Counted from the stretch's first letter, positions 42,561 through 64,000 are shown. The stretch: DNA of 64,000 nucleotides from an uncultured Eubacteriales bacterium (GCA_963536495.1 CAUTAF010000002.1:74032-138031); one strand, 5' to 3'. Numbers and translations: made by a program. The notes: generated by a model not told the origin, from the letters alone.

Positions 42561-44007
42561 TTAACCTTTTTAATACCTTTTCTTTTCCAAGTAAATATAT
42601 AGTTGCAGATAATTCAGGACCATGCATCAAACCACTACTTGCTATTCTTATAGGCATAAATAAACTTTTTCCTTTATTACCTGTTTCTTCTTTTACTTTA
42701 TTAATAATATTAACTATATTTTCTTCAGTAAAATCTTCTAATTCTTCTATATGTTTTTTAAAAGATTTAACTGTTTTGATAGATTGTTCTTCTTTTAATA
42801 TTTCTTTTGCTTCTTCAGTTATTTCATGATTATCATTAAAGAATATTGAAATTTCATCTATTATTTCTTCAGCATATGATATATGTTGTTGATAAATTTC
42901 AAGTAATCTATTTATCCATGCTTCATCTTTACCGTCCAAAGAATATTTGTTAGTTATAAAAGGTATAATCCATTCTTTAAATTTATCAAATGGCATTTTC
43001 TTAATATAATGAGAATTTATCCATCTTAATTTTTTAATATCGTATACTGCCGGAGATTTATTAATTCTAGTACTATCCCAGTCTTTAGTTAATTCTTCTA
43101 ATGTAAATATTTCTTTATTTTCTGGATGAGTCCAACCTAAAAGTGCTAAGTAATTTACTATAGCTTCTGGTAAATAACCAGCATTATATAAATCCATAAA
43201 ACTTGCATCACCATTTCTCTTAGATAACTTATGTCCATCTTCTCTTATAATGTGTGGTAAGTGTATATAAACTGGTGATTCCCAACCAAATGATTTATAA
43301 AGCAATAAATATTTAGGAGTTGAAGATAAGTATTCATTTCCTCTTACCACATGAGTAATATTCATCAAATGATCATCTATTACATTAGCAAAATTATATG
43401 TTGGAAATCCATCACTCTTAATTAAAATTTGATCTTCTAAAAGTTTATTTTCAACAGATATTTTTCCATATACTAAATCTTCATATGAAGTTATACCTTC
43501 TTTTGGCATCTTTTGTCTAATAACATATGGCTCATTATTAGCTACTCTTTTTTTAGCTTCTTCTAAAGATATATTTTTACATTTACCATCATACATAAAT
43601 GTAACTTTCATAAGTTCTGCTTCTTCTCTTAATTCTTGTAATCTTTCTTCATTACAAAAACAGTAATAAGCTTCACCTTTTTCTACTAATTCTTCAGCAT
43701 ATTTTAAATAAATATCTTTTCTTTCACTTTGGATATATGGTCCACAATCTTTAGGATTATTAGGTCCTTCATCTATATTTAAATTACATAATTCTAATGT
43801 TTTATAAATAAACTCTACTGCACCTTCTTTTTGTCTTGTTTGATCAGTATCTTCTATTCTAAGTATAAAATCTCCATTTTCATGTTTTGCTACTAAATAT
43901 TCAAATAATGCACTTCTTAAATTTCCTATATGCATAAAACCTGTTGGACTTGGTGCAAATCTTGTTCTAATTTTTTTATTGTTATCTATCATTTTTCCTC
44001 CAATCAA
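42544..44007 (-). CDS. gltX: glutamate--tRNA ligase
   Basis: HIGNLRSALF, KLSKR. Confidence 0.95.
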   Translation of the reverse strand: MIGGKMIDNNKKIRTRFAPSPTGFMHIGNLRSALFEYLVAKHENGDFILRIEDTDQTRQKEGAVEFIYKTLELCNLNIDEGPNNPKDCGPYIQSERKDIYLKYAEELVEKGEAYYCFCNEERLQELREEAELMKVTFMYDGKCKNISLEEAKKRVANNEPYVIRQKMPKEGITSYEDLVYGKISVENKLLEDQILIKSDGFPTYNFANVIDDHLMNITHVVRGNEYLSSTPKYLLLYKSFGWESPVYIHLPHIIREDGHKLSKRNGDASFMDLYNAGYLPEAIVNYLALLGWTHPENKEIFTLEELTKDWDSTRINKSPAVYDIKKLRWINSHYIKKMPFDKFKEWIIPFITNKYSLDGKDEAWINRLLEIYQQHISYAEEIIDEISIFFNDNHEITEEAKEILKEEQSIKTVKSFKKHIEELEDFTEENIVNIINKVKEETGNKGKSLFMPIRIASSGLMHGPELSATIYLLGKEKVLKRLNDENL

Positions 44008-44642
44008 TTATAGTTATTAGGATTTAATAATTTCCAATTATTATCAACTTTTACTATAACTAAACTTTTTTTATTTTCAAAATTATCTTCTTTTCCTTTT
44101 AATTTATAATTAATTAAAACTTTATAAGCTTTTGTTATTTTTTTATCAAAAAGATGTTGCTTATCAAGCAATTTTAATTCTTCTTTTTTAAGTTCTTCTC
44201 CAGTATCTATTACAATACAACTAATATTGTTTTTACCACTATCTTTAAGTTCATTTAAATAAAAACCATTATCTACATCAACATATTTTTCTATTTTTTT
44301 AAAATCTAAAGATTTTAAATACTCACAATATTTTTTTGCCACCCTAACTCTTATATTATTCGCATTAAGAATTCCAGTTAATAAAACTATAGATATCGCT
44401 ATAAAAATACAAATATTAGTAATGAAATAATAATCAATTTTTTTCTTTTTAACACTTTCGATGTTTATTTCTTTTTCTTCTATTTTTTCTTCAAAACCTT
44501 TATCTTTAACAACTATAGTTTCGTTAACAGAATCATTATTTTGAACAAAATTCTTCATATCACTAAACTCTACTACCTCTTCATTCTTTGTAATGTCTTC
44601 GATACTTTCGTTAGTAGGTGTTATAAGTATATCATCTTCCAT
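44004..44642 (-). CDS. hypothetical membrane-anchored protein
   Basis: Single TM helix; 4-nt overlap with gltX. Confidence 0.4.
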   Translation of the reverse strand: MEDDILITPTNESIEDITKNEEVVEFSDMKNFVQNNDSVNETIVVKDKGFEEKIEEKEINIESVKKKKIDYYFITNICIFIAISIVLLTGILNANNIRVRVAKKYCEYLKSLDFKKIEKYVDVDNGFYLNELKDSGKNNISCIVIDTGEELKKEELKLLDKQHLFDKKITKAYKVLINYKLKGKEDNFENKKSLVIVKVDNNWKLLNPNNYN

Positions 44643-44781
44643 ATTAACCTCTATGTATTTATTATATCACCTTAAATTTATTTTATATATTTTTAGAGAC
44701 AATTTTATAAAATATATAAAAGTTAGTATATATTTTTTTGTTATTTTGTCAATAAAAGAAAAAATACTATTTTAAGTATTT

Positions 44782-45642
44782 TTATCTTATTTTATTTTTA
44801 TTTTCTTCTTTATTTTTTTCATAACTAAAATTTTCTCTATTTAATAAATATTTCTTTTCTAGTAAATCTTTTATATTTTTATTTTTTTCTGCTTCTAATT
44901 TTTTACTTATTTCTTCTTTAGGTAATTTTCTTATCTTTTTACTCTCTAAAAGATTAGATTTTATAACAATTTTTCTATAACCATTATCACTATATATTTC
45001 TTGATAACCATTATATATTTCTTCACCCATATTATTTAATTCTATACAGTTAAAAACATCAAAATAAACTCTATTTGCTAATGTTACAGAATCGGCAGAA
45101 CTTATAAATAAAGGTTCATCAAAACTATAAAAATCTATTTCATCTTCTATTTTTTTCAATCTCTTCGAACTAAGAACTATCTTATTTTTTTCTAAACCTT
45201 CTTTCGTAAAATTTCTTGTTTTACTGTAAGAATGAATCTCACAAAGATTATCTTCTTTAGCTACATCTTTTAATTCTTCTTTTATAGTATAATCTGCACT
45301 TTCTTTATCTATCGATATTAAAGCTTTATCTCTTACTAAATGTGTTATATTTTCTTTTTTAGATAGCTTAGCAGCAAATATAGAAATATTCTTATAATTA
45401 TCTTCTTCCTCTATTCTAAGAAGAAATTCTAAATCTTTATTTCTAATTATTAAACTATTACTAAATAAATCTACTGTTTCTATTTTAAAATTTTCTTTTA
45501 TTAAACTTAAAATATTCTTTATTTCTTCATATATATAATCTTTATTTAAATCTTTATTAACATCTTTTCCTATATTTAATTTTTCTAAATAATCATCTAT
45601 ATTTCTAGATAATTCTTGATAACTCATTTTGTTATTTATCAT
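44782..45642 (-). CDS. hypothetical protein
   Basis: ORF only. Confidence 0.4.
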   Translation of the reverse strand: MINNKMSYQELSRNIDDYLEKLNIGKDVNKDLNKDYIYEEIKNILSLIKENFKIETVDLFSNSLIIRNKDLEFLLRIEEEDNYKNISIFAAKLSKKENITHLVRDKALISIDKESADYTIKEELKDVAKEDNLCEIHSYSKTRNFTKEGLEKNKIVLSSKRLKKIEDEIDFYSFDEPLFISSADSVTLANRVYFDVFNCIELNNMGEEIYNGYQEIYSDNGYRKIVIKSNLLESKKIRKLPKEEISKKLEAEKNKNIKDLLEKKYLLNRENFSYEKNKEENKNKIR

Positions 45643-46318
45643 TATTTTTACCTCTTACTACTTTAGCATTATTAAAAATACTATTTAAATATTTATCTGG
45701 ATAATACTTATCTAATAAAACATCCACAATATTATTAGCTTTTTTATTATTTCTTCTTTCATTTTGTCTATAACAAGCAAGTATAGATATAGTGCAATCT
45801 ATTATTAAAACATAAGTTATAATTCTGGTTATCCATTTATGATTAGATATGTTTTTAATAAATTTATCAACAAGTGGAATGATAAATAAAGCAAATATAA
45901 TCCCAAAAAATCCCCAAAATATCATATGAAACAAACTCGTTCTTCCATTAAAATTAAAACTTAGATAAGAATAATCCCAGGATATTGTCCCAAATATTTT
46001 TTCTTGTAAAAAAGAAAATAAATATTCTATTATTCCTCCCCCTAAAAATCCATAAAGAAAACCTTTAAATATCGATAAAATTTTATTATTTTTATAAAAA
46101 TTACTAAAAGAATATAAAATATATAAGATTAAAAAACCTATTCCATATATAGGAATTAAAGGTTCATAAATAAGACCTTGTCTAATTACTATTTCACCTT
46201 TAAAAACAGTTAATAAGTTTTCATGAAGAAAACCTATAAAACTACCAATTATAAATATCCAAAAATATTCAGTATAAGTTTTTCTAATTTTATTTTCCAT
46301 TATAAACCCAATAAACAC
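45632..46318 (-). CDS. polytopic membrane protein
   Basis: 5-6 predicted TM helices. Confidence 0.4.
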   Translation of the reverse strand: MFIGFIMENKIRKTYTEYFWIFIIGSFIGFLHENLLTVFKGEIVIRQGLIYEPLIPIYGIGFLILYILYSFSNFYKNNKILSIFKGFLYGFLGGGIIEYLFSFLQEKIFGTISWDYSYLSFNFNGRTSLFHMIFWGFFGIIFALFIIPLVDKFIKNISNHKWITRIITYVLIIDCTISILACYRQNERRNNKKANNIVDVLLDKYYPDKYLNSIFNNAKVVRGKNNDK

Positions 46319-46330
46319 CTTTATTATATA

Positions 46331-47848
46331 CTAAAATAAAGGAGATAGAAATCTTAGTATCTTATTTATTATTTTATTAATTCTTTTTTCGTTTTTCTTT
46401 ATGGCTTTTTTTGACAATTTAGAACATTTTTTAGATGTTTTTATAAAATCTTTCTTTAAATCTTTAATTATTTCACTTTTGTAAAAAACTGAATTTGATT
46501 CAAATGTTAAAAATAAACTTCTATAATCTAAATTTACAGTTCCAATACAAGCTATTTCATCATCAACAAGAACTGCTTTAGCATGTAAAAATCCAGGAGT
46601 ATAAGTTAATATATCTACCTTTTCTTTTGCTAAATCACTAGCATAACTTAAAGTCATATTATATGCCATTTTTTTATCAGGTATCTTAGGTATATATATT
46701 TTTACATCTACTCCTCTTTTAACAGCGGATATCAAAGCTTTACTTAATTTTTCATTAACCATTAAATACGGTGTGTAAAACCATGCATATTTTTTACTGT
46801 TATCTAGTAATTTAACATATAAATTATTAGATATTTCTTCTTTATAATTTGGTGAATCATAATACGAAAGTATATAACCATCTTTTTTGTTACTTACATA
46901 ATTTTTTTTAAAAATTTCATCTCCAAGTTTATTTTTAGAATATGCATTCCAAAATTCCATAAACATATAAGTATAGTTTTCTACTGCTTTTCCTCTAAGT
47001 TGAAATCCAATATCTTTCCAATGACCAAATCTTACTTTTTCATTTATATATTCATCTGCTATATTTATACCGCCACTAAATACAATCTTATTATCAATTA
47101 TCATCATTTTTCTATGATCTCTATTATTTAATGATGATGTTATAAATCTAACAGGATTAAAAACATTACATTTAATTCCTTTTTGATTTAATATAAAAAT
47201 ATTTTTAAAAGAATAAGTCGTCATGCTACCAAAATCATCATATAAAATTCTAACATCAACATTTTCTTTCACTTTTTTTTCTAATATTTTCATAATAGAA
47301 TTCAAAAATTTTCCTTTTGATAAAATAAAATATTCTAAGAAAATAAACTTTTCTGCTTTTTCTAATTCTTTAATCATATCTAAATACATATCTTCTCCAA
47401 GAGAATAATATTTAGCATATTCATTATAATTTATATTTGTATTAGTGTTTTTTGCTACATAATTAAATATCTCATATATCTTTTTATCATCATTTTTAAG
47501 TTCTTCATTAACACTTTTATTAGGTAAAAGAGTGAATTTTACATTCTCTTTACCTTTTTTTATCTTTTTCATTATAGGTTTAGAAGTCTTCTTATTAGCA
47601 GAAGTAAAATACAACCAAGATCCAAATATCGGTATGAAAAACAAAATAAAAATCCAAATTGGTTTGTAAGACGTTTCTTCTTTTTTATCATAAAGCAAGC
47701 GAAATATTACCGCTAAAGAAATAATACTAAAAAAAACTAAAACAAAAAAGAGCACTTCATAAAACCAATTAATTATTAATATATAAAATAATAATTGGAT
47801 TGTTATATATGGTGATATTATAAATAATCTATCTAGTATTCTTTTCAT
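46331..47848 (-). CDS. cls: cardiolipin synthase
   Basis: Two N-terminal TM helices; two PLD HKD motifs (HRKMMIIDNK, HAKAVLVDDE). Confidence 0.9.
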   Translation of the reverse strand: MKRILDRLFIISPYITIQLLFYILIINWFYEVLFFVLVFFSIISLAVIFRLLYDKKEETSYKPIWIFILFFIPIFGSWLYFTSANKKTSKPIMKKIKKGKENVKFTLLPNKSVNEELKNDDKKIYEIFNYVAKNTNTNINYNEYAKYYSLGEDMYLDMIKELEKAEKFIFLEYFILSKGKFLNSIMKILEKKVKENVDVRILYDDFGSMTTYSFKNIFILNQKGIKCNVFNPVRFITSSLNNRDHRKMMIIDNKIVFSGGINIADEYINEKVRFGHWKDIGFQLRGKAVENYTYMFMEFWNAYSKNKLGDEIFKKNYVSNKKDGYILSYYDSPNYKEEISNNLYVKLLDNSKKYAWFYTPYLMVNEKLSKALISAVKRGVDVKIYIPKIPDKKMAYNMTLSYASDLAKEKVDILTYTPGFLHAKAVLVDDEIACIGTVNLDYRSLFLTFESNSVFYKSEIIKDLKKDFIKTSKKCSKLSKKAIKKNEKRINKIINKILRFLSPLF

Positions 47849-47889
47849 TCAAATTCCTTTATATAAATAAACAATTTTGTTCAAAAGTT

Positions 47890-49044
47890 TTAAATATTTA
47901 ATTTTTTGATATATTCATATCCTAATAAAATTTTATTAGAAATGCTAGTGTTTTCATTATATATTTCTTTTAATTTATCCATAACTTTTACTTCTTGATC
48001 ATATAAGCTATAAAAACTATCATAAGCTTTATAATTTATCTTAAAAATATCTTTAAATATTTTTGAGTTAAGTATAGGATCAACAACCATTTCACTATAT
48101 TTCCATATTAAATTAGGAGTTTCAAATTCTTCTTTTTTATAATTAGGAAACATTTCTTTCCATTTTTCAAACCAAAAAAAGTGTAATATTTCATGAGATG
48201 TAGTTTCTATTAATTTTTCTTCATCAACTATACCTATAGAAAAACTGTATGTATCTAAATATCTAGGAAATATAGGTATAATACCCACATTTGCAATAAT
48301 TTTAGATACTTTAAGATTAGAAATATCAAAATATTCAGATAAGCTTTTTAAGTATATATCATTATATTTATTCCATATATTAGTATATTCTGTTATTTTT
48401 TGATTTAGCAAATCAAAGTTATCATAATATCTCTTATTAACAATATCTTCAATTTGTTTATTTATATCTAAATCCTTTTTTATTTCTTTTAACTCTGGAA
48501 AAAGACCAGTAACATATTTATATGTGTTTATTGTCTTATCCTTTTCATTATATGCATATTTTACTAAATCTATATTTTCTTCTAAAGTCATAACTTTAAA
48601 TTCAACTATTAAAGATTTTTTATATTTCATATAATATCTACTTTCAGTTTCATCTACTATAATAAAGTTTAATCTTTTATATAAAGAAACAGCTTTTTTA
48701 TTTTCTTTATAAACCCATAAATAAACAATATTGTTAATATCTAATATATTTTTTATAATCTCTGTTCCTATACCTAAACTTCTATAAGATTCTTCTAAAT
48801 ATATTTCATCAAGTAATACTCCATCATCTTGTTTTTTTATCAAAAGACATCCAATAGCTTTATTATTAAATAGTATTATCTTATATTCTTTTAATTCTTT
48901 AGGAATAGAAGTATCAATATAATTGTTTATTTTAATTTTTTCTTCTTCTGTTAAATTATTAGCATAAGTATAAATAATATTACTTTTAGCTTGTTTTAAA
49001 TAATTTATATAATCTATACTAGCATCTACTAAACTATATTTCAT
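47890..49044 (-). CDS. GNAT acetyltransferase domain fused to a C-terminal domain carrying an HExxH motif
   Basis: N-terminal GNAT core (KAIGCLLI...YRSLGIGTEI...AVSLYKRLNF); C-terminal TSHEILHFFW. Confidence 0.45.
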   Translation of the reverse strand: MKYSLVDASIDYINYLKQAKSNIIYTYANNLTEEEKIKINNYIDTSIPKELKEYKIILFNNKAIGCLLIKKQDDGVLLDEIYLEESYRSLGIGTEIIKNILDINNIVYLWVYKENKKAVSLYKRLNFIIVDETESRYYMKYKKSLIVEFKVMTLEENIDLVKYAYNEKDKTINTYKYVTGLFPELKEIKKDLDINKQIEDIVNKRYYDNFDLLNQKITEYTNIWNKYNDIYLKSLSEYFDISNLKVSKIIANVGIIPIFPRYLDTYSFSIGIVDEEKLIETTSHEILHFFWFEKWKEMFPNYKKEEFETPNLIWKYSEMVVDPILNSKIFKDIFKINYKAYDSFYSLYDQEVKVMDKLKEIYNENTSISNKILLGYEYIKKLNI

Positions 49045-49405
49045 AGCAAATCCTTTCTTATATATTTTTATTTAATTTTGAAAATATATTTAAATTATAT
49101 CATATAAAAAGAAGTGTTTTTATTTAATCAAAAGAAAACCAGCTATTAAACTAATCCCATTTGGAATTAAAATAATAAGCTGGTCGCATTTCTTATTGTC
49201 GAATTTAACATTTGAATCAAAAATATTTACTCTAAAAGTTAATTGTAAATAATTATAAATTGTAATATATAAATTCTAAACTTAAAAATTTAAATAAATT
49301 ATAAATTATTTAGAGCAAATATATAAACAAATGACAACAAGAATGCTTTGGCTAAAAATATTTATTTTTATTTAATCCACAAAATAACTTAGTAGAACCA
49401 ATAAA

Positions 49406-49906
49406 TTATATAGTAAATTCTGTAGAATTCAACTTAGAAATTTCAAAATCTGTCTTTTGAATTTCACTATCTATTTCTGCAATTTTTTTTCTTAATTTCT
49501 TTCTATCAAAATTTAATGTCTTAGATTCAAAATATGAATTATTTACTTCTGTAACTCTTTTTTTACTATTTTTTAATGTTAATAAATTTTCATATGTTGT
49601 CTTAAGTTTTCTTAAATTAGTATTATCAACTATCGCTTCTTGTATAGTTCTACCATCACTTAATTTAAATTCATTATTTTTTTCATATAAAATAGCTTTC
49701 AATTTTGATAACTCTTTAGAAGTTTTTTCTATATCTTCAAGATTTAAATCAAACTCTTCTTTATTATCTTCAATCAAATTAACTCTACCATCAAGTTCTT
49801 CGATAGATATATTTAAAGCATAATCTTCTATACTATAAACTTTTGAATTTAAATTTTTTTCTGTTTCTGAAATTAAATTCATAAGTGCTGATATATTTGT
49901 TTTCAT
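49406..49906 (-). CDS. hypothetical coiled-coil protein
   Basis: ORF only. Confidence 0.35.
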   Translation of the reverse strand: MKTNISALMNLISETEKNLNSKVYSIEDYALNISIEELDGRVNLIEDNKEEFDLNLEDIEKTSKELSKLKAILYEKNNEFKLSDGRTIQEAIVDNTNLRKLKTTYENLLTLKNSKKRVTEVNNSYFESKTLNFDRKKLRKKIAEIDSEIQKTDFEISKLNSTEFTI

Positions 49907-49975
49907 TTTATTATTCTCCTTTTATCATTTACATTTTACTATATATCAAAAGAAAAGAATATTACAAATAATATT

Positions 49976-50623
49976 CTAGTTTAATTTTTTAACTAATTTT
50001 TTACTATATCCATAAACAGGACTTGAAAACTCTTTTTTAAATATATCTTTTTCATATTCTAAATAATCTTTACCAAATTTATTGATAGTATATATTTTAA
50101 ATCTTTCTGGATTATAATTTTCCATATCAAAATATTCTTCTTTTTTATATACTTGAAAAAATAACTCTGTTAAATCTAAATCTACTAATGTATCTATTCC
50201 TCTTTCTAATGATTTTTCTGCTACTTTTTTAACACAATCATTAGCGTGATATCCACCTATTACTAATTTATCGACATCTTTTAATTTTTCTATTATTTTA
50301 TCTTCATCTGGATATTTAGGAATAAAATTTTTCTTTTCATTTCCTCTTTCATCATATGCATTAATATCCAAAAATAAAGTATCAGTATATATTATTTTAT
50401 CTTCTTCTTTTTTATCTATTCCATATATTTTTTTATCAGGAAACATTACAAAAATAACTTGATAATCTTTTTGTCTATATCTTCTATCAATTGTTTCATT
50501 AAGTATCGGCATAGGTTTTAAAATATGCCACGTATCATATAAACTCTCATCAGATAGTAAATATGTACTAGCAAATTCTTTTATAGGATATAAATACAAA
50601 AACACTTTTTTCATAATCATCAA
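49976..50623 (-). CDS. isochorismatase-like cysteine hydrolase family protein
   Basis: KLVIGGYHANDCV resembles the catalytic Cys region of the isochorismatase family. Confidence 0.4.
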   Translation of the reverse strand: MMIMKKVFLYLYPIKEFASTYLLSDESLYDTWHILKPMPILNETIDRRYRQKDYQVIFVMFPDKKIYGIDKKEEDKIIYTDTLFLDINAYDERGNEKKNFIPKYPDEDKIIEKLKDVDKLVIGGYHANDCVKKVAEKSLERGIDTLVDLDLTELFFQVYKKEEYFDMENYNPERFKIYTINKFGKDYLEYEKDIFKKEFSSPVYGYSKKLVKKLN

Positions 50624-50703
50624 GTCTCCATATTTTCTACTTTTAAAAGTATTTTATTATCTAATTTCATTATAGCATATATCTTATTTAAACATACTAT
50701 ATT

Positions 50704-52002
50704 TTAATATCTCTTTTTCTTAACTATCTCTAATTCTCTAGGATCATATTTCATATTAGAATAAAAATCATCTTCTTTTGTTAGTGATAATTTTAATAAA
50801 TCTTTATCTGTTATTTTTACATCAAATGTTTTTATATTTTCATCTTTTTTATCTGTGTTCCAAAAATTAAATATATTATCTTTATACTCGTATCTTCCAT
50901 GCATAATAGATGTTCTTATTTCATAAATAAATTCTTTATTTGTTAAATTGTTTTTTAATTTGTTGTCTATTTTTAACAAATCATAATTATAATTATCTTT
51001 ATCATAACTATCATAATTATATATAAAATTTATATAAAATTTTGATAATATTATTAAAGAATTATATAAGTCGAATTCTTCTTTTGAAAAATTATTAAAT
51101 ATAGATTCTATATCTAAAATATCAACTTTATTTTCAAATATATCAATAAACTTGATATATGGATTATCTTTTTTAACATATAAATTTTTAGCTAAATAAC
51201 TTATATATTTTGGATTAATATTGTTATTTTTATCGTATGCTATATTTAGTTGATTCAAATCATATATTAACAAATTTCTTTGTGAACCATATACATATCT
51301 ATCATCAAAACTTGGTAAATTAAAAGTTTGATATTCACTTATACTATCATATTTACCAGAATTAACTAAAGTAAATCTTCCGTGAGCTATAATATTTCTA
51401 ATTTGAGTAAAGAAAAACTCTGTTATATTAGATTGTTTTATATCACCACTATTAATTTTAATTTTTCTAATTTCATTATTAAATTTATTAATACACTTTA
51501 TAACTGTACATCCTTTTCTTAACGATGTTATTACTCCATTATTTATAGATAAAATATTATTATCATATAAAAAATCCCAATCGTTAATATTAAAATAACT
51601 TGTATTTGTTTTTATGTCATAAATAGATAGTGTATCTTCAGGAATAACAAAAGATTCTCCTATATTCATATTTTTTTCTTTTAAATTAGAAAACGTATGA
51701 CCTAATAAAAGTGAAATTTTATTATCTTCTTTTATTTCAAAATGGTTCATATAATTATATAAATCTTCGTTTTTTATATATTTTTCTAAATCATCCTTAT
51801 TAGAAGTAATAGAAATTAAAGAAAATATCAAAAGAAGTAATTGGGGATCACTTATTTCAAATATATCAGAAAGATTTTCATTAACATCACTATATGCGTT
51901 TAATATTTTATTTACATCATATATAAATTTTTCTCTAGAATGTTCTCTTTCGTATAAAAGCATATCTTTAAATTTTGAACTTATTTGATCAAATTCTTGC
52001 AT
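50704..52002 (-). CDS. hypothetical protein with two Rx4H (HEPN-type) motifs
   Basis: FFTQIRNIIAHGRF and IYEIRTSIMHGRYEY lie about 170 aa apart. Confidence 0.45.
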   Translation of the reverse strand: MQEFDQISSKFKDMLLYEREHSREKFIYDVNKILNAYSDVNENLSDIFEISDPQLLLLIFSLISITSNKDDLEKYIKNEDLYNYMNHFEIKEDNKISLLLGHTFSNLKEKNMNIGESFVIPEDTLSIYDIKTNTSYFNINDWDFLYDNNILSINNGVITSLRKGCTVIKCINKFNNEIRKIKINSGDIKQSNITEFFFTQIRNIIAHGRFTLVNSGKYDSISEYQTFNLPSFDDRYVYGSQRNLLIYDLNQLNIAYDKNNNINPKYISYLAKNLYVKKDNPYIKFIDIFENKVDILDIESIFNNFSKEEFDLYNSLIILSKFYINFIYNYDSYDKDNYNYDLLKIDNKLKNNLTNKEFIYEIRTSIMHGRYEYKDNIFNFWNTDKKDENIKTFDVKITDKDLLKLSLTKEDDFYSNMKYDPRELEIVKKKRY

Positions 52003-52042
52003 TATTTACTTCCTTTTTATATATATTATATTACAAATTACA

Positions 52043-52081
52043 AAACAAATAGCATATTATGTTTATATGTGCTATTTGTTT
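52043..52081 (-). terminator. terminator hairpin downstream of the GNAT gene
   Basis: Perfect 12-bp inverted repeat AAACAAATAGCA / TGCTATTTGTTT with a 15-nt loop. Confidence 0.5.
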
Positions 52082-52166
52082 AAATATTATTAATTTTTTA
52101 TTCAACAAAATGTGTGTGTTTTATTTGACATTTTTATTCGATATATAAAATTTTTTAAATTTCATA

Positions 52167-52655
52167 TTAATCTTCTATCTTCTTTATCATTGTTTCCATT
52201 CTTGTATGGTAGTTTATCTTGTTATAAAATTTCTTACCTATTTCATTGTAAGCAAATACATCAACTATTACATATTCACATCTGACTGACTTAAAATATT
52301 CTTCCATTTTATTTATAAGTTCTTGTCCTATTCCTTTACTTCTAATTTTATTTGTAACAATTAATTCTGTAATTTTTCCTCTTTTAGGACATTTATAATC
52401 TAGATAATCATATTCATCATAAGAAAATATACGTCCCATGATTAAGCCAATTATCTTATTATTTTTTACTGCCAAATAACATTTACCATTATTTTTATTA
52501 ATTTCTTCTAAATCTATAATTGCCCTTTTCTCTCGATATTCAGGATGAACTTGATCGAGATGATCTTTATCTATTGATACAATATATTCTTCAAGTTCAA
52601 CTAATAAGTCCTTAACATCATCTAGATATTTGTCTTCATATTCTATTACTTGCAT
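52167..52655 (-). CDS. GNAT family N-acetyltransferase
   Basis: RSKGIGQELI...YVIVDVFAYNEIGKKFY. Confidence 0.7.
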   Translation of the reverse strand: MQVIEYEDKYLDDVKDLLVELEEYIVSIDKDHLDQVHPEYREKRAIIDLEEINKNNGKCYLAVKNNKIIGLIMGRIFSYDEYDYLDYKCPKRGKITELIVTNKIRSKGIGQELINKMEEYFKSVRCEYVIVDVFAYNEIGKKFYNKINYHTRMETMIKKIED

Positions 52656-53514
52656 TTTTAATCACCTCAAATACTTCAAATTCAACTTTTGTGTTTTCGT
52701 TAAAATTAGGATCTATTTTTTTAAAAAAATTCATATGATTTTCTTTCCATTCACTTAATGATTTGTTCTCTCCCTCTAATTTTGCTAAATCCCATGTAAT
52801 ATTTTTAAATTCAGTAATAACAACATTAATTGTTTTTATAAGGCATACAGTGTTATCTTTTAAATCTGTCAATATTGATATATCTCCAACTTTTGAAATA
52901 TTATCCAATTCATATAAAGATGTAGTAGCTGTCTTTTTACCTTCTAATACAAGATTAACTAATCTATCTACATCAATTCCAAACGTCCATCTATCGAGTC
53001 TATTTAATAGAACTATCATTTTTTCTTTATTTCCTAATGTGTCGGTTTCTATATATTCATCAACTATTTCAAATCCACATTTTTCATAGAATTTAATAGC
53101 CCTTTTGTTCCTTTTAAAAGGTCTTAAAACAATACAGTCACACAAATAATTCTCATAAATATAATTATTAATATAATCAACGACTTTTGTATCAATTCCT
53201 CTCAATAAGTATTCTGACTCGCCAATAAATATATCATATTCATATATACTATCATATTTTATTAATTCTTTACTTTTCTTATCATCATATTTATATATTT
53301 GAACAAATCCTATTTTATTATCATTGTAATTTATAAAAAATAGATGTGGTTGATTTACTAACAATTTATTCTTATATTTATTTTCTATCTCTTCAAATGA
53401 AAACTTTTTTTGTTCAAAGCACTCATAAATAAATTCTTGACTACACCATTTATACATTAATTCATAATTATCTTTTTTATCAGTGAATTTAATTAAATCT
53501 ATTTCGCTCATCAT
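52636..53514 (-). CDS. GNAT-like domain fused to a C-terminal ASCH domain
   Basis: N-terminal acetyltransferase-like core; C-terminal LEGKKTATTSLYEL...EVFEVIK typical of ASCH/YqfB. Confidence 0.5.
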   Translation of the reverse strand: MMSEIDLIKFTDKKDNYELMYKWCSQEFIYECFEQKKFSFEEIENKYKNKLLVNQPHLFFINYNDNKIGFVQIYKYDDKKSKELIKYDSIYEYDIFIGESEYLLRGIDTKVVDYINNYIYENYLCDCIVLRPFKRNKRAIKFYEKCGFEIVDEYIETDTLGNKEKMIVLLNRLDRWTFGIDVDRLVNLVLEGKKTATTSLYELDNISKVGDISILTDLKDNTVCLIKTINVVITEFKNITWDLAKLEGENKSLSEWKENHMNFFKKIDPNFNENTKVEFEVFEVIKNASNRI

Positions 53515-53635
53515 ATCACCAACTTTTACACATAATTATACCATGAAACCATAATAAATTTTTACTTATATAGACAAATATCTAAATCAAAATTACTCCA
53601 AAGTAGCTCCAGCCTTTATTTTGGGCTATTTTTTG

Positions 53636-53681
53636 TCAAAAAGAAAAACTCGTATTTTCTCTTATGAGATCTTACGAGTTA
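53636..53681 (-). terminator. terminator after secA
   Basis: AACTCGTA...TACGAGTT hairpin plus U-run on the minus transcript. Confidence 0.5.
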
Positions 53682-56168
53682 TTTTCCACAACATTGTTTA
53701 TATTTCTTACCACTTCCACATGGACACAAGTCATTTCTACCTACTTTTTCTATCTTTTTAGGTTTATTTTTTAATTTAACTTTTCCATCATTAGTCATTT
53801 TTGACTTAGATATTTCTTGTCTTTCTTGATTTTGAGATATTTCAGATTTAACTAAGAATAAAGTTATTTCTTGATCTATATTTTGTAACATCTTATTAAA
53901 TAAATCAAAACCTTCTACTGTATAAGCTCTAAGTGGATCTTGTTGACCATATCCTCTTAAATATATAGCTTCTCTAAAATGTTCCATAGCATTTATATGT
54001 TCTGTCCAGTATTTATCTACTACACTTAAAGTAATAACTTTTTCAAATTCTTCTACTACTTCAATTGGTAACTCTTTTATTTTTTCTTGATATTCATTTA
54101 ATATTTTTTCTTTAACAAAATATATTATAGCATCAGCATCCATTGAAGATATTTCATCAAATTTAATATCTTCTCTAAGTAATGTATTAAAATATTCTAC
54201 TATTTCTTGTAAATCTTCTTTTGTTAATTTTTCACTATCTATTAGTTTTGATTTAACAACATCAGTAACATGGTTTTCTACTGCTACTAAGATACTATCG
54301 TGAATAGATTCGCTATCTAATATTTCATTTCTCTTAGCATACATTATTTCTCTTTGATTATTCATAACATCATCATATTGTAATAAATTTTTACGAATAT
54401 CAAAGTTATTTCCTTCAACTCTTTTTTGTGCTGAAGAAAGCCCTTTAGTAAATCTCTTACTAGTTATTGCTTCTGTTTCTTCAAAACCTAATCTAATAAG
54501 CATATTCTTTAGACCATCAGTTCCAAATCTAACCATTAAATCATCTTCCATAGAAACATAGAATTGACTAAATCCAGGATCTCCTTGTCTTCCACTTCTT
54601 CCTCTTAACTGATTATCAATTCTTCTTGATTCATGTCTTTCAGTTCCTAAAACACATAAACCTCCAAGAGCTTTAGTTTCATCAGTAAGTTTAATGTCAG
54701 TTCCACGACCTGCCATATTAGTTGCAACTGTAACTGCTCCTTTTTGACCTGCTTTAGCTATAATTTCTGCTTCTCTAGCGTTGTTTTTAGCATTTAAGAC
54801 TTCATGTTCGATGTTTTTAGCTGTCAACAATTGACTAATTAATTCATTAGTTTCAACAGCTATAGTACCGATAAGTATTGGTTGACCTAACTTATGTCTT
54901 TTTTCAACTTCATTAATTAAAGAAGTAAATTTACCTTTTTGTGTTGGATATAACAAATCTGGAGCATCTATTCTTGCTACTGGTTTATTAGTAGGAATAC
55001 AAATAACTCTCATATTATATATATCATTAAATTCTTCTTCTTCTGTTTTAGCAGTACCTGTCATACCAGATAATTTATTATACATTCTAAATAAGTTTTG
55101 GAATGTTATAGTAGCTAAAGTTTTAGTTTCTTGATTAATCTTAACATTTTCTTTTGCTTCTATAGCTTGATGAAGACCATCACTATATGCTCTTCCCTTC
55201 ATTAAACGTCCAGTAAATTGATCTACTATAACTATTTCACCATTATTAACTACATAATCTACATCTTTTCTCATAGAGAAATTAGCACGTAATGCTTGAT
55301 TAATATGGTGAATTAAATTAGCGTTAGATACTTCATAAAGATTAGCTAAATGGAATTCTTTTTCTCCTTTTTTAACTCCTTCTTCTGTAAGTGTAACTGT
55401 CTTATTTTGTTCTTCATATATATAATCTATATCTTTTTTTAATTTCTTAGCAAATCTATCTGCTGCTTCATACATAGAAACATTTTTTAAATCTCCTCCA
55501 GATATAATTAAAGGAGTTCTAGCTTCATCTATTAAAACTGAGTCAACTTCATCTACTATTGCAAAATTAAGTTTTCTTTGTACTCTATCTTCTTTATGAG
55601 TAACCATATTATCTCTTAAATAATCAAATCCAAGTTCATTATTTGTAGTATATAAAATATCACATTCGTATGCTTTTTTCTTTTCTTGAGGAGTTAAATC
55701 TCTTAAGTTTATACCAACGCTAAGACCTAAAAATTCATGTATTCTTCCCATCCACTTAGCATCACGATCTGCAAGATATTCATTAACAGTTACTATGTGT
55801 GTACCTTTACCATCTAGTGCATTTAAATAAGCTGGTAATACAGAAGTTAAAGTTTTACCTTCTCCTGTTTTCATTTCAGCTATATTACCTTTATGTATAG
55901 CAATAGCACCAAGTAATTGAACATAGAATGGTTTTTCATTATTTACTCTAAATGCTGCTTCTCTTGCCGTAGCATAAGCTTCAACTAAAATATCATCTAA
56001 TGTTTCACCATTTTCTAATCTATTTTTAAATTCATCAGTCTTTGCTTTTAATTCATAATCTGAAAGTTTAGAATATTCTTCTTCTAACTCTTCAATTTTA
56101 TCAGCTATTATAGAAAATTTTTTTAGTTCTCTATAATCTTGATCAAATAATCTTTTTAAAAAATTCAT
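53679..56168 (-). CDS. secA: preprotein translocase ATPase SecA
   Basis: DEAD-like motor motifs; C-terminal zinc-binding CPCGSGKKYKQCCG. Confidence 0.97.
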   Translation of the reverse strand: MNFLKRLFDQDYRELKKFSIIADKIEELEEEYSKLSDYELKAKTDEFKNRLENGETLDDILVEAYATAREAAFRVNNEKPFYVQLLGAIAIHKGNIAEMKTGEGKTLTSVLPAYLNALDGKGTHIVTVNEYLADRDAKWMGRIHEFLGLSVGINLRDLTPQEKKKAYECDILYTTNNELGFDYLRDNMVTHKEDRVQRKLNFAIVDEVDSVLIDEARTPLIISGGDLKNVSMYEAADRFAKKLKKDIDYIYEEQNKTVTLTEEGVKKGEKEFHLANLYEVSNANLIHHINQALRANFSMRKDVDYVVNNGEIVIVDQFTGRLMKGRAYSDGLHQAIEAKENVKINQETKTLATITFQNLFRMYNKLSGMTGTAKTEEEEFNDIYNMRVICIPTNKPVARIDAPDLLYPTQKGKFTSLINEVEKRHKLGQPILIGTIAVETNELISQLLTAKNIEHEVLNAKNNAREAEIIAKAGQKGAVTVATNMAGRGTDIKLTDETKALGGLCVLGTERHESRRIDNQLRGRSGRQGDPGFSQFYVSMEDDLMVRFGTDGLKNMLIRLGFEETEAITSKRFTKGLSSAQKRVEGNNFDIRKNLLQYDDVMNNQREIMYAKRNEILDSESIHDSILVAVENHVTDVVKSKLIDSEKLTKEDLQEIVEYFNTLLREDIKFDEISSMDADAIIYFVKEKILNEYQEKIKELPIEVVEEFEKVITLSVVDKYWTEHINAMEHFREAIYLRGYGQQDPLRAYTVEGFDLFNKMLQNIDQEITLFLVKSEISQNQERQEISKSKMTNDGKVKLKNKPKKIEKVGRNDLCPCGSGKKYKQCCGK

Positions 56169-56192
56169 AATATCACCTAAAGTAATTCTATC

Positions 56193-56222
56193 AAAAAAAG
56201 ACTTGTAATTACAAGTCTTTTA
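56193..56222 (-). terminator. terminator after hpf
   Basis: Palindrome AGACTTGTAATTACAAGTCT plus U-run. Confidence 0.55.
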
Positions 56223-56232
56223 ATGAACTATG

Positions 56233-56751
56233 TTACTTATCTTCCTCAATAAGTCCATAATTTCCATCTTTTCTTTTATATAATACTTTTATATCCATAG
56301 AATCAGAATCTTTAAATATAAAGAAATCGTGTCCCAATAATTCCATTTGTAACATTGCTTCTTCTTCATTCATAGGTATTAATTCTATATTTTTTCTCTT
56401 AACTATAGATTTTTCATTATCTTTTATTTCTTCTATTTCTTCATAGATAAATATTTCTTCTCTTCTTTTGGAAAGTTTAGTCTTATTTTTTCTAATTTGT
56501 CTTTCTATTTTATCTATTGCTAAATCTATACCAGCATATAAATCAGGATTTTTTTCTTCAGCTCTTATATATAAAGCCCCAGTATTTAAAGTAAATTCAG
56601 TAATATAAGCATTATTTTTATTACCAGAAAGTACTACATTTACTTCCATATCTTCTTTATTTATATATTTATTTAATTTAGAAGTTTTTTCTTCAACATA
56701 ACTCTTAATTGAATCTGTCACTTCAAAATCCTTTGCTCTTATATTTATTTT
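56233..56751 (-). CDS. hpf: ribosome hibernation promoting factor (long form)
   Basis: MKINIRAKDFEVTDSIKSYVEEK...; C-terminal dimerisation domain; likely start at the internal Met. Confidence 0.85.
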   Translation of the reverse strand, partial: KINIRAKDFEVTDSIKSYVEEKTSKLNKYINKEDMEVNVVLSGNKNNAYITEFTLNTGALYIRAEEKNPDLYAGIDLAIDKIERQIRKNKTKLSKRREEIFIYEEIEEIKDNEKSIVKRKNIELIPMNEEEAMLQMELLGHDFFIFKDSDSMDIKVLYKRKDGNYGLIEEDK

Positions 56752-56790
56752 CATACAAAACACCTCCTTATATGATTAATAAACTAATTA

Positions 56791-59700
56791 TTATTTACAA
56801 CTCCATTTAGGTTTTTGACAAACTGTAGTATTTCCAGCATTATCTATTCCTAAATAACAAGTCGATGCTGATTTTGCAACAGTACAATTTAAACAAAATC
56901 TATTGTTAGGATGTTTATCACAATATTTTTCTGTTTTTGTACCAAGATTAACTACTGGACGCATTCCACTTTCTTCATCGTAAAAATTACATTTTTTATT
57001 ATAACTTTCTCCATCTGAAGTATTACATGTATCTGGTTCTCTAAGACGAGGTGGTTCATCATCAATCTTAAATTCTAAACTACATCCCCCTTCATTACCT
57101 GCTGCATCCATCATCCATATTCTCATAGTTCTTGAAGAACCAAGTTGATGATTTTTATCTTTTTGTAATTTATTCATATAAGTTCTTGTTTTTGAAGTAA
57201 GTACAGAGTGTTGTCCTCCAGTTTTATTTTTGTTTTCCCAAATGTTATCGTGATTTTGCATAACAAACGTTGTATATCTTGGTTTTTCATTTCTTTCTGC
57301 ATCAGTAAAGGCTATTTTATTTACATTTGATAGATATTCCTTACTTAAAACAATAAATTTTGTTTTAGTTGTTATCCAATCATCATACCTAAAATTCCAA
57401 CTACTTTCATCATTTAAATAATCTCTATCATCTGGAGTTTCCCTAACTTCATCTCTTACCAAATCAAATGTACATACAGGTTTTGTTTTATCTATTAAGA
57501 TACCATATTTTTTAATCGTTGTTTTCCCTTGATGTGAAATACTTGTTCCTATACTCTTATCATCAAATGGACAAACTCCTAAATTACCAGCATAGTCATA
57601 TATAACTCCATATGGTTTAGTCCATGCACTAAAGTTAGCATCACTTAGATGATTATATGGATCTATTGCTGTTTCTTTTGTCATTTTAAATGTTTCACCA
57701 TCGTGGTCAAAATCTTGTTCTAACTTGATAAATTCATCAACGTTATAATCTTTTACTGCTGCTACATTATTTATATTACTATTATGTTTATTCCAATCAA
57801 CATTTGGATATAAAGCATTTGGTCCAACATCTATATAACTATTAGACAAATTATATGGTTCATTTCCTATTGGTCTTAAACATTTATAGTCATGTAATGA
57901 ATTAAGACTACTACCTCTTGCACTAACTCCAGTTGCTCTATCACAACTAGCTACATTAGAAAAACTTGAGAAGTATACATTAACATCACTACTATACCAC
58001 CATTTAACATTATTATTTTTTCCTTTTAATTTTATCTTACAAGCAGGAGTTTGTTTAACAATATTATTTACTGTAACTGATTGAGTAACTCTATTACCTG
58101 AATTATCTACCACCATTATATTTACAGTTCCGTTATTAAATACAGATCTATATTTTTCATAAGAAACTACCCTTTGACCAGCTTGTTCTGTTTCAATATC
58201 TTTAATACCACTTATATCATCTTTAGCATCTAAATATAATTGAACAGCATTTCTTGTAAATATTCTTTTACCTCTTACTGGATTTTCATTACTTCTCGTA
58301 TATACATAAACATTAGTTATATTAGAAATATCTCCTTGAATTTGTAAAGAATTTAAATCTCTTACTTCAGGAAATCTTAATAATACTCTTCTTCCACCCT
58401 TACTAATACTTCTTGTAAATGTTTCACCATTTACTGTAATTCTATATTCAGAAGAAGATGATAAATTGCTTAATTCTAAAGCTATAAGTTTAACATCAGT
58501 AAAGTCAGTAATATTATTTGTTCCCATAATACCCATTATCGGATCTTTATAAGTCCATTGTTCAGTTCCTCTAAGACCTTTTTTAATATTACATCCTTCA
58601 GATTGATTATCATAATCACTTTCGTATTGACCTGGGAAATATCCAACTAGTCTACAAGCTGATTTATCAACTATTAATTTTTGTTCACTATTATAAACTT
58701 TATATCCAAAGTATATATCTTCTGGTTTTAATTCAGGAGGTTTTCTATCTCTTGTAGTTTGATATGGATTTCTACAAACACTTCCATTACAGTGACTTCC
58801 GTTTTCTCTCCATCCTCTATCTCTATTTAATTCATTTCCCGCATTATCTTTAGCATACCCATATACTAAATTAATACCATCTTTTAATTCTATTTCATTT
58901 AATTGATTATATTTAGGATTATCAGGACTATCTCCAAGTCCCCAAGTAGATATACCACTTTCATTATCCTTTAAATAAGTTATTTCTACTTTATCATTTT
59001 TTAACCCTAAAGATAAATGTGGATTTCTAACATCCTGCATAACTTTAACTTCACAAGTTGTAGCTCTTCCTTTTCTATCATATACACTAACTTTATCAGT
59101 TAATTTATAATTTCCTGGTTTTGCTGTTATCTTTTTAGTATAAAGTTCTCTTCTACATCTTTCTCCACCAAGTTCATCAATACATCTTACAGATACTTCT
59201 ACATCTTTATTTGTCCATTTATCATTTTCCATTTCAACTTCACATTGAACCTTAGGACAAATTTTACCTTTTTCACACTTATTAGTACCTGGTTGATAGT
59301 TTTCATCTGTTTCGTCTTCGTCTTCTTCTTTTAATTTTAAAAGACTCTTACAGTCATCTTTGGATTTATTTTTTCTACATTCTAAATATTTATTTAAACC
59401 ATCATAAAGATTAGAACATCCGACTCCTACTTCATTACCACATATAATACAAGCTTTATATTCATAATTTTGATTACCAAGGTTTTTTATTTGAACAACA
59501 CTTATATCTTTATAACAATATCTTTCTTTTTCATCCGTTCCTTCTTTATAATAAGGATTTTTTAAATCATGTTCATATCCTTCTTCAATAAGTTGTTCTA
59601 AAGTTACTATTTCTCTAGAATTATCCTTTGGTACTGGACAATTTTTATCGTTTGCATCTTCACAATATTTATTTTCACTAAGATATGTACTAGTCATATT

Positions 59701-59898
59701 TTTACCAGCTGTTTTCATACCATTTTCATGACTTATAAGTACATTTTTTTTAGTTTTACTAATATATCCAGTTACTGATACTATTGCAATAGAACTAAGT
59801 ATTCCTATAATCACTATAACTGCAATAATTTCCACTAGTGTAAACGCTTTTTTATTCTTATGTTTACATTTTTTATTACATTCTATCTTTTTCTTCAT
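56791..59898 (-). CDS. large (1035 aa) Cys-rich surface protein with type IV prepilin-like N-terminus
   Basis: MKKKIECNKKCKHKNKK-AFTLVEIIAVIVIIGILSSIAIVSVTGYISKTKK: a class III signal/pilin N-terminal helix with Glu at +5. Confidence 0.6.
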   Translation of the reverse strand: MKKKIECNKKCKHKNKKAFTLVEIIAVIVIIGILSSIAIVSVTGYISKTKKNVLISHENGMKTAGKNMTSTYLSENKYCEDANDKNCPVPKDNSREIVTLEQLIEEGYEHDLKNPYYKEGTDEKERYCYKDISVVQIKNLGNQNYEYKACIICGNEVGVGCSNLYDGLNKYLECRKNKSKDDCKSLLKLKEEDEDETDENYQPGTNKCEKGKICPKVQCEVEMENDKWTNKDVEVSVRCIDELGGERCRRELYTKKITAKPGNYKLTDKVSVYDRKGRATTCEVKVMQDVRNPHLSLGLKNDKVEITYLKDNESGISTWGLGDSPDNPKYNQLNEIELKDGINLVYGYAKDNAGNELNRDRGWRENGSHCNGSVCRNPYQTTRDRKPPELKPEDIYFGYKVYNSEQKLIVDKSACRLVGYFPGQYESDYDNQSEGCNIKKGLRGTEQWTYKDPIMGIMGTNNITDFTDVKLIALELSNLSSSSEYRITVNGETFTRSISKGGRRVLLRFPEVRDLNSLQIQGDISNITNVYVYTRSNENPVRGKRIFTRNAVQLYLDAKDDISGIKDIETEQAGQRVVSYEKYRSVFNNGTVNIMVVDNSGNRVTQSVTVNNIVKQTPACKIKLKGKNNNVKWWYSSDVNVYFSSFSNVASCDRATGVSARGSSLNSLHDYKCLRPIGNEPYNLSNSYIDVGPNALYPNVDWNKHNSNINNVAAVKDYNVDEFIKLEQDFDHDGETFKMTKETAIDPYNHLSDANFSAWTKPYGVIYDYAGNLGVCPFDDKSIGTSISHQGKTTIKKYGILIDKTKPVCTFDLVRDEVRETPDDRDYLNDESSWNFRYDDWITTKTKFIVLSKEYLSNVNKIAFTDAERNEKPRYTTFVMQNHDNIWENKNKTGGQHSVLTSKTRTYMNKLQKDKNHQLGSSRTMRIWMMDAAGNEGGCSLEFKIDDEPPRLREPDTCNTSDGESYNKKCNFYDEESGMRPVVNLGTKTEKYCDKHPNNRFCLNCTVAKSASTCYLGIDNAGNTTVCQKPKWSCK

Positions 59899-59932
59899 AA
59901 TAAAGTAACTCCTATATTAATATAATATCATT

Positions 59933-59967
59933 TTAAAAAAAATAATGTGTTATTTTATATACACATT
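59933..59967 (-). terminator. terminator after the tagO/wecA gene
   Basis: AATGTGT-loop-ACACATT plus U-run on the minus transcript. Confidence 0.45.
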
Positions 59968-59994
59968 ATCACTTTCTATGTAAAAATACAATTC

Positions 59995-61044: not shown

Positions 61045-61053
61045 TTTGTTCTC

Positions 61054-61500: not shown

Positions 61501-61541
61501 CTCATTCCTCCTGTATTAATTTTAACAAAAAAAAAGATGAA

Positions 61542-61772: not shown

Positions 61773-61845
61773 GATTTAAAAAAACCATAGAAATTAAATA
61801 CGATGTTATTTTAACAAGTAATTAAAAACTTTTCAAGTATTATTA

Positions 61846-63941: not shown

Positions 63942-64000
63942 AGTAAATTCTCCCTTTTTATTTTAACATATTAAGAAATTTATTATAAGAAAATTACTAT

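Follow-up and report, generated by a model that had tools for sequence, protein, structure and literature searches.

The 64-kb window analysed here (the whole stretch of DNA, 64,000 nucleotides, with a G+C content of ~22 %) encodes on its minus strand a 432-residue protein, the open reading frame for which was found exactly as claimed in a preliminary description of this DNA. The protein carries two R-x4-H motifs in one chain, and we refer to its gene as the dual-motif gene; the features of the gene, its product and its surroundings are collected in Table 1. Inspection of the sequence 5′ of the ATG revealed an AGGAAG ribosome-binding site at a distance of 6 nt and, beyond it, a TATAAT element, which are likely the gene's own expression signals; a promoter scan overall performed no better than its shuffled controls. 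The gene belongs to an accessory stretch of six, whose products are a GNAT-ASCH protein, a GNAT, the dual-motif protein, a 215-residue protein that is weakly isochorismatase-like, a DUF6847/DIP1984 protein and a 384-residue GNAT fusion. Housekeeping genes lie on either side, encoding MurA, a family-4 glycosyltransferase, a pilin-like protein, HPF and SecA on one, and cardiolipin synthase, GluRS and CysRS on the other.

Table 1. Features of the dual-motif gene, its product and its locus, in positions of the 64-kb window.
Feature	Position	Strand	Basis or remarks
Accessory stretch of six genes between secA and cardiolipin synthase	47890..53678	minus	Annotation and contig comparison
secA 3′ end (SEC-C motif CPCGSGKKYKQCCGK*), terminator hairpin and ~110 nt downstream	53566..53725	minus	Contig comparison
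Hairpin 5′ of the gene	52043..52081	minus	Folding, ΔG −11.3 kcal/mol; 12-bp perfect stem, 15-nt loop, then UUUUG
Likely own expression signals of the gene	52009..52030	minus	Sequence inspection; TATAAT 52025-52030, AGGAAG 52009-52014
Open reading frame of the candidate dual-motif protein	50704..52002	minus	ATG start, 432 aa; coordinates include the stop codon
N-terminal helical region, residues 9-85	51748..51978	minus	Model secondary structure; Y17, R23, K25, L55, I63, K69 and D70 invariant
Predicted Big_2/Ig-like all-β domain, residues 89-185, directly before the motif-1 helix	51448..51738	minus	Model and Foldseek
Middle region, residues 187-280, with motif 1 and the invariant N250-x-L252-N253-x2-Y256 block	51163..51444	minus	Alignment and model
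Motif 1, IRNIIAHGRF, residues 201-210 (R202, N203, H207)	51373..51402	minus	R202, N203, A206, H207 and G208 invariant
C-terminal region, residues 281-432, putative second HEPN-like unit	50707..51162	minus	Alignment and model, pLDDT ~90
Motif 2, IRTSIMHGRY, residues 362-371 (R363, T364, H368)	50890..50919	minus	R363, T364, I366, H368, G369 and Y371 invariant

The secA-proximal border of the accessory stretch was defined by comparison with ~40 contigs of the same or sister species, which have the synteny upstream in common with the window and encode a SecA that is at least 99 % identical in protein and 85–90 % in DNA. All lack the dual-motif gene and carry unrelated content downstream of secA, homology ending exactly at the secA stop codon; nothing in positions 44000–53700 matched the 8 kb downstream of secA in these contigs. 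The secA gene ends in ~45 nt that code for the SEC-C motif CPCGSGKKYKQCCGK*, and this 3′ segment, together with the terminator and ~110 nt, recurs in related genomes as remnants on the far side of inserts. At locus L006 a secA remnant follows each of three successive cassettes, one of which includes a homologue of the dual-motif gene, and at P0015 and L012 the homologue lies directly after secA. The 3′ end of secA is a hot spot for strain-variable cassettes.

Other homologues occupy quite different surroundings. Two assemblies have the gene order TnpV, homologue, HTH_36 and large serine recombinase; in one branch the homologue is found in a Mob_Pre/AAA_25/integrase island, with an AlwI restriction-modification system and GmrSD as neighbours; one locus is near a NERD-domain gene; and at L010 the order is F420-ligase, an AbrB/MazE-type gene directly upstream of the homologue, the homologue itself, NUDIX and RecD2. 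No flanking ORF is common to the independent contexts, nor is there a conserved partner or antitoxin. From this variety of contexts without a common flanking ORF it follows that the gene is a mobile, strain-variable, stand-alone cassette, which adjoins recognised defence genes only occasionally. The gene had originally been placed in an accessory island of GNAT and hydrolase genes and read as an abortive-infection or toxin-like RNase or an unrecognised defence gene. Its accessory and mobile nature is borne out by its absence from the ~40 contigs and by its carriage on mobile islands elsewhere, but its neighbourhood in the window (GNATs, the ASCH fusion and DUF6847) is not a recognised defence island, PADLOC (PADLOC-DB v2), which had been suggested as a check, giving zero matches for the window neighbours and for all 22 aligned members of the family. 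A homologue in a defence setting does exist, namely the one beside the restriction-modification and GmrSD genes.

The preliminary description also assigned the gene a hairpin of its own. The 12-bp stem exists, but is not conserved along with the gene: it folds only marginally better than its shuffles (z = −1.8), lies ~85 nt past the stop codon of the upstream GNAT gene (52167–52655) and is absent from the homologous upstream regions with which it was compared (L005, L006 and L007), which have in common a different, promoter-like TGTTATAAT element. The absence from these three regions and the low z-score rule the hairpin out as a conserved element of the dual-motif gene, and it is probably the terminator of the preceding GNAT gene.

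The family is tiny and rare. At 90 % identity it comprises 65 clusters in a collection of 5.8 billion proteins; at 50 % identity the number is 25, a good many being fragments, in one of 1.84 billion representatives. Full-length intact homologues share 31–99 % identity with the 432-residue protein. A single match was found in 185,579 reference genomes, a 56 % identical homologue in an ‘uncultured Bacilli bacterium’ metagenome-assembled genome from Hadza gut samples, and there were no relatives in annotated phages, annotated plasmids or IMG/VR contigs. Nothing could be learned from metagenome locus L015, whose assembly is riddled with indels, and no annotated relatives were reached when the 1.84 billion representatives were searched exhaustively with HMMER.

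The central observation made earlier, that the protein contains two HEPN-type R-x4-H motifs, is upheld. Both motifs are invariant in 22 aligned homologues with identities down to 31 %, and the remoter relatives P0067 and P0077 retain the pair in the forms RN(I/V)xAHG and LRTAIMHGWY. The protein has only five histidines in total, and the sole histidines invariant across the 22 homologues are H207 and H368, one from each motif. The two motif arginines are 161 residues apart, rather than the approximately 170 first estimated. At least two motifs of the form R[NDHT]x3H arose in 8 of 20,000 shuffles of the 432-residue protein, which is the sole case with two such motifs among the 55 minus-strand ORFs of at least 100 residues in the window; the pair is well beyond chance. 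In the HEPN superfamily, defined by an R-x4-6-H motif, the residue after the arginine is typically polar, being N, D or H (Anantharaman et al. 2013, PMC3710099). A polar residue follows the arginine in both motifs here (N203 and T364), threonine falling outside the typical set. The two motifs are real, fully conserved and of HEPN-like form. A bare R-x4-H is in itself non-diagnostic, for the window also encodes, at 30451–31920, a class II aminoacyl-tRNA synthetase with three.

We generated an AlphaFold2 model of the protein from the family alignment (mean pLDDT 83.5, pTM 0.84). Helices in the N-terminal region, residues 9–85, are followed by an all-β domain for which Foldseek comparison of the full model with the PDB gave Big_2/Ig domains as its top matches (7quz, E = 3.5e-3, probability 1.0; rmsd 3–4 Å across ~85 columns). 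Residues 89–185 are thus predicted to form an Ig-like β-sandwich of the Big_2 type; Pfam Big_2 itself gave no match at threshold for these residues, and weak Pfam HL_N-beta matches to the β-domain were seen in 7 of the 22 members. Motif 1 comes next, on a helix (193–207) that in the model terminates exactly at H207 and leads into a strand (210–214), and short elements and helices then extend over residues 264–334. The C-terminal region is modelled as helices 283–334, which include the invariant SKFYINFIYNYD block at residues 320–331, then the motif-2 helix (355–367), which stops just before H368, a three-stranded sheet (371–398) and a final helix (399–416). Each motif thus falls, in the model, at the C terminus of a helix, which is the placement described for HEPN domains. 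[quoted passage not shown] Aligned together they score 32–33, versus 11–12 ± 2.3 for shuffled sequences, and none of 100 shuffles equalled the score. What is duplicated is a block, [FI][FY]xxIR[NT]xIxHGR[FY], both times at a helix end with a strand after it. Masking the 14-residue motif block left no remaining similarity between the two halves of the protein; since the signal vanishes with the motif, we reject a demonstrable duplication of a whole domain.

The HEPN fold proposed at the outset was not confirmed by database searches. Neither the protein nor any of the 22 members matched Pfam (all HEPN families included), NCBIfam, PADLOC or PHROGs, and neither the single sequence nor the family profile retrieved any PDB sequence. 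The check suggested for the fold, Foldseek comparison of an AlphaFold model, detected only Ig-like domains in the PDB and no HEPN or Cas13 structure when the full model was used, and when residues 187–432 were modelled separately nothing significant was found in the PDB (best E = 0.57) or BFVD (best E = 0.099). The PDB contains many HEPN and Cas13 structures.

One HEPN family, PF18736 (HEPN pEK499_p136), did show a marginal similarity, and its members were tied to restriction-modification and Pgl defence operons in the 2013 census (PMC3710099). Precomputed PF18736 matches are listed for most close homologues, graded ‘faint’ and in one case, P0012, ‘weak’ (E ≤ 1e-3). These were not reproduced with a local PF18736.6 model, which matched none of the 22 members at E ≤ 10; the gathering threshold of the family is 26.6 bits, and its type protein, WP_000528932.1 from the E. 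coli plasmid pEK499, scores 168 bits (E = 1e-49). We built a PF18736 family alignment from this type protein and compared it with the dual-motif family by hhalign, both whole and by segment, with column-shuffled controls. Full length against full length, only 15 columns round motif 1 were aligned, with a probability of 1.3 %. By segment, the C-terminal unit aligned over 67 columns spanning a helix, the motif, three strands and a helix (E = 0.029; score reached in 6 of 100 shuffles), and the N-terminal and middle regions without the Ig domain aligned over 134 columns (E = 0.014; score reached in 1 of 100 shuffles); overall, E values fell between 0.006 and 0.04 and probabilities between 1 and 6 %. 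With filters off, a PF18736-type HMM touched both motif regions in every member, at a mere 0–4 bits, and in several members it touched the N-terminal helices as well, in collinear order. The apparent link to PF18736 is collinear and suggestive but not significant, because shuffled columns reach the same scores in 6 and in 1 of 100 trials.

Like PF18736, the dual-motif protein has an R-N-x-x-A-H core at a helix end, with alternating-hydrophobic stretches and then a helix after it, and its C-terminal unit appears to have the same order of elements; for PF18736 the strands and helices are deduced only from the pattern of residues in its alignment, and the three β-strands of the 432-residue protein come from the model. 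Both families are found on mobile DNA. They differ in that PF18736 proteins are of ~160 residues with one motif (relatives are mostly ~155–170 residues when full-length, shorter fragments also being found), as opposed to 432 residues with two motifs and an Ig-like insert, and in that the PF18736 motif is followed by F or I where the 432-residue protein has G-R-[FY]. The latter, moreover, falls below the Pfam threshold and is unreported by hmmscan.

Two R-x4-H motifs in one chain, thought to form one composite RNase site, are characteristic of Cas13, and in a literature search ‘two HEPN domains’ turned up for hardly any proteins other than Cas13 and Las1; the 2013 HEPN census (PMC3710099) contains no protein with tandem HEPN domains in a single chain. 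The protein had earlier been distinguished from Cas13 as being far smaller than any of these effectors. This argument is outdated, and fails because proteins of Cas13an, compact ancestral type VI CRISPR effectors of 429–577 residues, are as small as 429 residues and hence similar in size to ours. Other differences do set the dual-motif protein apart. It has no CRISPR array, no guide RNA and no sequence or Foldseek similarity to the Cas13 structures of the PDB, and it possesses an Ig-like insert. In agreement with the preliminary description, we detected no CRISPR or tandem repeat array in the 64-kb window, nor in five homologous loci (L001 and L005–L008). The paper on Cas13an proposes that Cas13 originated through fusion of two AbiD/F-like defence HEPN genes, and here too the proteins diverge, since the weak affinities of the 432-residue protein are towards PF18736, not AbiD/F. 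AbiD and AbiF (Abi_2) are likewise stand-alone, mobile Firmicutes proteins with an R-N-x3-H HEPN motif and a presumed role in abortive infection, but have one motif per chain instead of two; the 432-residue protein has neither an Abi_2 match nor the RNA family RF03085, which was absent from the window at the gathering threshold, from 49–54 kb at E ≤ 1 and from the five related loci. No other Rfam family occurs near the gene in the window or in those loci. Since neither the window nor the related loci yielded a CRISPR array, a tandem repeat or an Rfam family, we reject both the Cas13-like reading and one based on an AbiF-type RNA, and the protein fails every Cas13 and AbiD/F test except that of two motifs in one chain.

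The chemistry proposed below would be that of Csm6/Csx1, Las1, the KEN domains of RNase L and Ire1, and HepT, in which two R-x4-H motifs contribute to each active site, and Csx1 also resembles the dual-motif protein in having a β-hairpin straight after its motif. In these homodimeric HEPN RNases, however, the motifs are paired between subunits, whereas the 432-residue protein has both in one chain, and it lacks a CARF, kinase or MNT partner. It differs from HEPN-MNT systems (HepT/MntA) in having no conserved adjacent antitoxin or nucleotidyltransferase, its neighbours being GNATs and the 215-residue protein.

The reading that we favour, and to which we give about an even chance of being correct, is that the protein is a stand-alone dual-HEPN-like RNase carried on mobile cassettes, an effector of abortive infection or of the toxin type, in which the Ig-like insert is a candidate module for regulation or binding. 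A first unit (A) would be made up of the helices at the N terminus, the helix of motif 1, at whose end R202-N-x3-H207 lies, and the stretch that follows, the Ig-like β-domain being inserted between helices 2 and 3 of this unit. The second (B) would be formed by the C-terminal 150 residues, that is helices, the motif-2 helix ending in R363-T-x3-H368, the three-stranded sheet and the last helix. As in HEPN dimers and Cas13, the loops that bear R-x4-H may lie opposite one another and create one composite, metal-independent RNA-cleaving site, in which the histidine would serve as general base and the arginine would stabilise the transition state. Such an enzyme would be cytoplasmic and, as no antitoxin-like partner is conserved, presumably auto-inhibited until switched on by a trigger, for which the Ig-like insert is a candidate sensor; alternatively, the insert may bind the substrate. 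Its most likely role would be abortive-infection-type defence or element-stabilising toxicity, because mobile cassettes and islands carry the gene with them.

The main structural alternative is a non-HEPN fold absent from solved structures, in which the R/H block would serve another chemistry (a phosphoesterase, or DNA or RNA binding) or be structural. In its favour, no fold, HEPN or other, was retrieved for the motif-bearing regions, none of the curated HEPN profiles gives a match, and similarity both to PF18736 and between the two halves shrinks to ~14 residues at the motif. Several invariant elements, namely NxLN at 250–253, SKFYINFIYNYD at 320–331, R23/K25 and K69/D70, are moreover without counterpart in the definition of HEPN. 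We regard a non-HEPN fold as unlikely without being far-fetched.

A HEPN RNase might also act outside phage defence, either as an addiction or competition toxin of the cassettes or as an RNA-processing enzyme of small-genome gut Bacilli. The contexts in the window and at P0015, L006, L010 and L012 are indeed of metabolic or acetyltransferase genes with no defence genes, an AbrB/MazE-type gene is directly upstream at one locus and no PADLOC model matches. A toxin or processing role is nevertheless at odds with the lack of a partner conserved across loci, strain variability and carriage on mobile elements speak against housekeeping, and one branch does sit beside a restriction-modification system and GmrSD; a role of this kind seems to us rather improbable. 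Far less credible still is an RNA-guided or RNA-regulated dual-HEPN effector, similar to Cas13an or to AbiD/F with a non-coding RNA, whose RNA was overlooked. Two HEPN-like motifs in 432 residues do fall within the Cas13an range of 429–577, and the upstream hairpin could in principle belong to an RNA. This idea is already largely refuted, and exceedingly improbable, given that neither the window nor five homologous loci contain a CRISPR or tandem array, that neither RF03085 nor another Rfam family lies near the gene, that the hairpin and upstream sequences are not conserved, with a gap of only 44 nt to the preceding ORF at L001, and that the protein has no Abi_2 match in Pfam and no Foldseek match to Cas13 in the PDB.

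Taking the dual-HEPN-like RNase a step further, it is possible, though doubtful, that the family arose by an independent, non-CRISPR fusion of two HEPN units, with an intramolecular composite RNase site and an Ig-like sensor in the first unit, and that single-gene cassettes carry it to new sites, in particular to a site-specific insertion hot spot where the end of secA encodes SEC-C. The family would then be a natural counterpart of the step, proposed for the origin of Cas13, at which two defence HEPN genes became fused, but with a pEK499_p136-like instead of an AbiD/F lineage as its source, and it would constitute a new stand-alone abortive-infection family.

The accretion of cassettes at the secA 3′ end offers a tidy case of a gene-end hot spot for integration. 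Should the HEPN assignment prove false, the protein would still be a conserved orphan in which an invariant R/H block occurs twice. Should it prove true, the family would add, outside CRISPR, a second way of arriving at a single-chain dual-HEPN nuclease, with a bearing on the origins of Cas13-type effectors; a non-CRISPR single-chain dual-HEPN protein is in concept relevant to the fusion proposal for Cas13. The protein would also provide a very small (432 residues), guide-free RNase scaffold with a built-in Ig-like module. For the abundant uncultured low-GC gut Bacilli in which it is found, the gene would be an unannotated defence or toxin gene that Pfam, NCBIfam and PADLOC have missed.

The region upstream of the gene for the 432-aa protein with two HEPN-like Rx4H motifs lies against secA, whose 3' end has the marks of an insertion hot spot. 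Remnant copies of this end, together with its terminator and ∼110 nt, were found after inserted genes; the segment is the coding sequence of the SEC-C zinc finger, CPCGSGKKYKQCCGK*, and homology among the remnants begins at 'CCATGTGG'. No recombinase was seen near the copies (coordinates are collected in the table below). The arrangement looks as if the secA 3' end were a target for site-specific insertion, at which cassettes have accreted in tandem.

Related contigs (L016-L024) share synteny with window positions 53679-64000. Because SecA is at least 99% identical in protein but the DNA across the syntenic 10 kb is 85-90% identical, these contigs are placed in a sister lineage, the divergence within secA being almost purely synonymous. 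Two kinds of content follow secA in them: either APH-like genes, or a set of a T4SS coupling-protein fragment, HisRS and an NTP_transf_2 (MNT-like) gene. The most divergent DNA of the conserved block is the gene for a 1035-aa prepilin-motif protein, the counterparts of which vary in length in the related contigs (1074-1078 aa).

Two unusual GNAT fusions (292 and 384 aa) flank the neighbourhood of the gene in the window. At L010, which carries the homologue P0009, an AbrB/MazE-family gene lies 131 nt upstream of that homologue; no other locus has a neighbour that plausibly resembles an antitoxin. The distant homologues, at 31% identity (P0040-P0065), sit in an island (in L001) with GmrSD, an AlwI-type restriction enzyme, two methyltransferases, AAA_25, a Mob_Pre relaxase and an integrase fragment, and a 135-aa orphan ORF directly precedes the homologue with a gap of 44 nt. 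The island adjoins recG, PFOR and cotE, which suggests that the host is a spore-forming Firmicute.

A bare Rx4H motif is not diagnostic, as a control within the window demonstrates: an ORF with three matches encodes a class II (Asp/Lys/Asn-type) aminoacyl-tRNA synthetase, and its matches are therefore chance. Precomputed Pfam matches of P0012, P0015 and other homologues to PF18736 (HEPN pEK499_p136) use PF18736.8, but PF18736.6, the version in our local library, did not match the homologues even at E≤10; weak or faint matches thus depend on model version or filter settings. The contig of L015 (VOFJ01002342.1) contains short ORFs only, and its homologue, of the P0022/P0028 type, seems to be broken up over the three reading frames; the pattern points away from a recoded genome and indicates an indel-rich, probably long-read, assembly.

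Coordinates of features in the window and in loci carrying homologues or secA 3'-end copies
Feature	Locus	Position	Strand	Remark
Class II synthetase ORF	window	30451-31920	-	
GNAT fusion, 384 aa	window	47890-49044	-	C-terminal 250 residues without family match
GNAT + ASCH domain fusion, 292 aa	window	52636-53514	-	unusual fusion
secA 3'-end segment	window	53566-53725		sole copy in window
1035-aa protein	window	56791-59898	-	only N-terminal prepilin-type methylation motif recognised
secA 3'-end copies	L006	5440-5612, 6628-6738, 7709-7766, 9467-9564		
secA 3'-end copy	L012	40-150		
secA 3'-end copy	L016	16270-16399		
secA 3'-end copy	L018	11718-11875		
secA 3'-end copy	L020	17539-17696		
AbrB/MazE-family gene, 80 aa	L010	1342-1584		PF04014, E = 1e-11
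Restriction island	L001	1-9795		
Split homologue	L015	7900-9400		
TnpV / HEPN-like gene / HTH_36 / large serine recombinase element	L005	9511-13621		
Same element	L007	218-4326		

L005 and L007, which come from different assemblies, share one small element, consisting of TnpV, the HEPN-like gene, HTH_36 and a large serine recombinase; the genes on its flanks are 96-99% identical. This element resembles a Tn4451-type mobilisable transposon, with the HEPN-like gene as its cargo.
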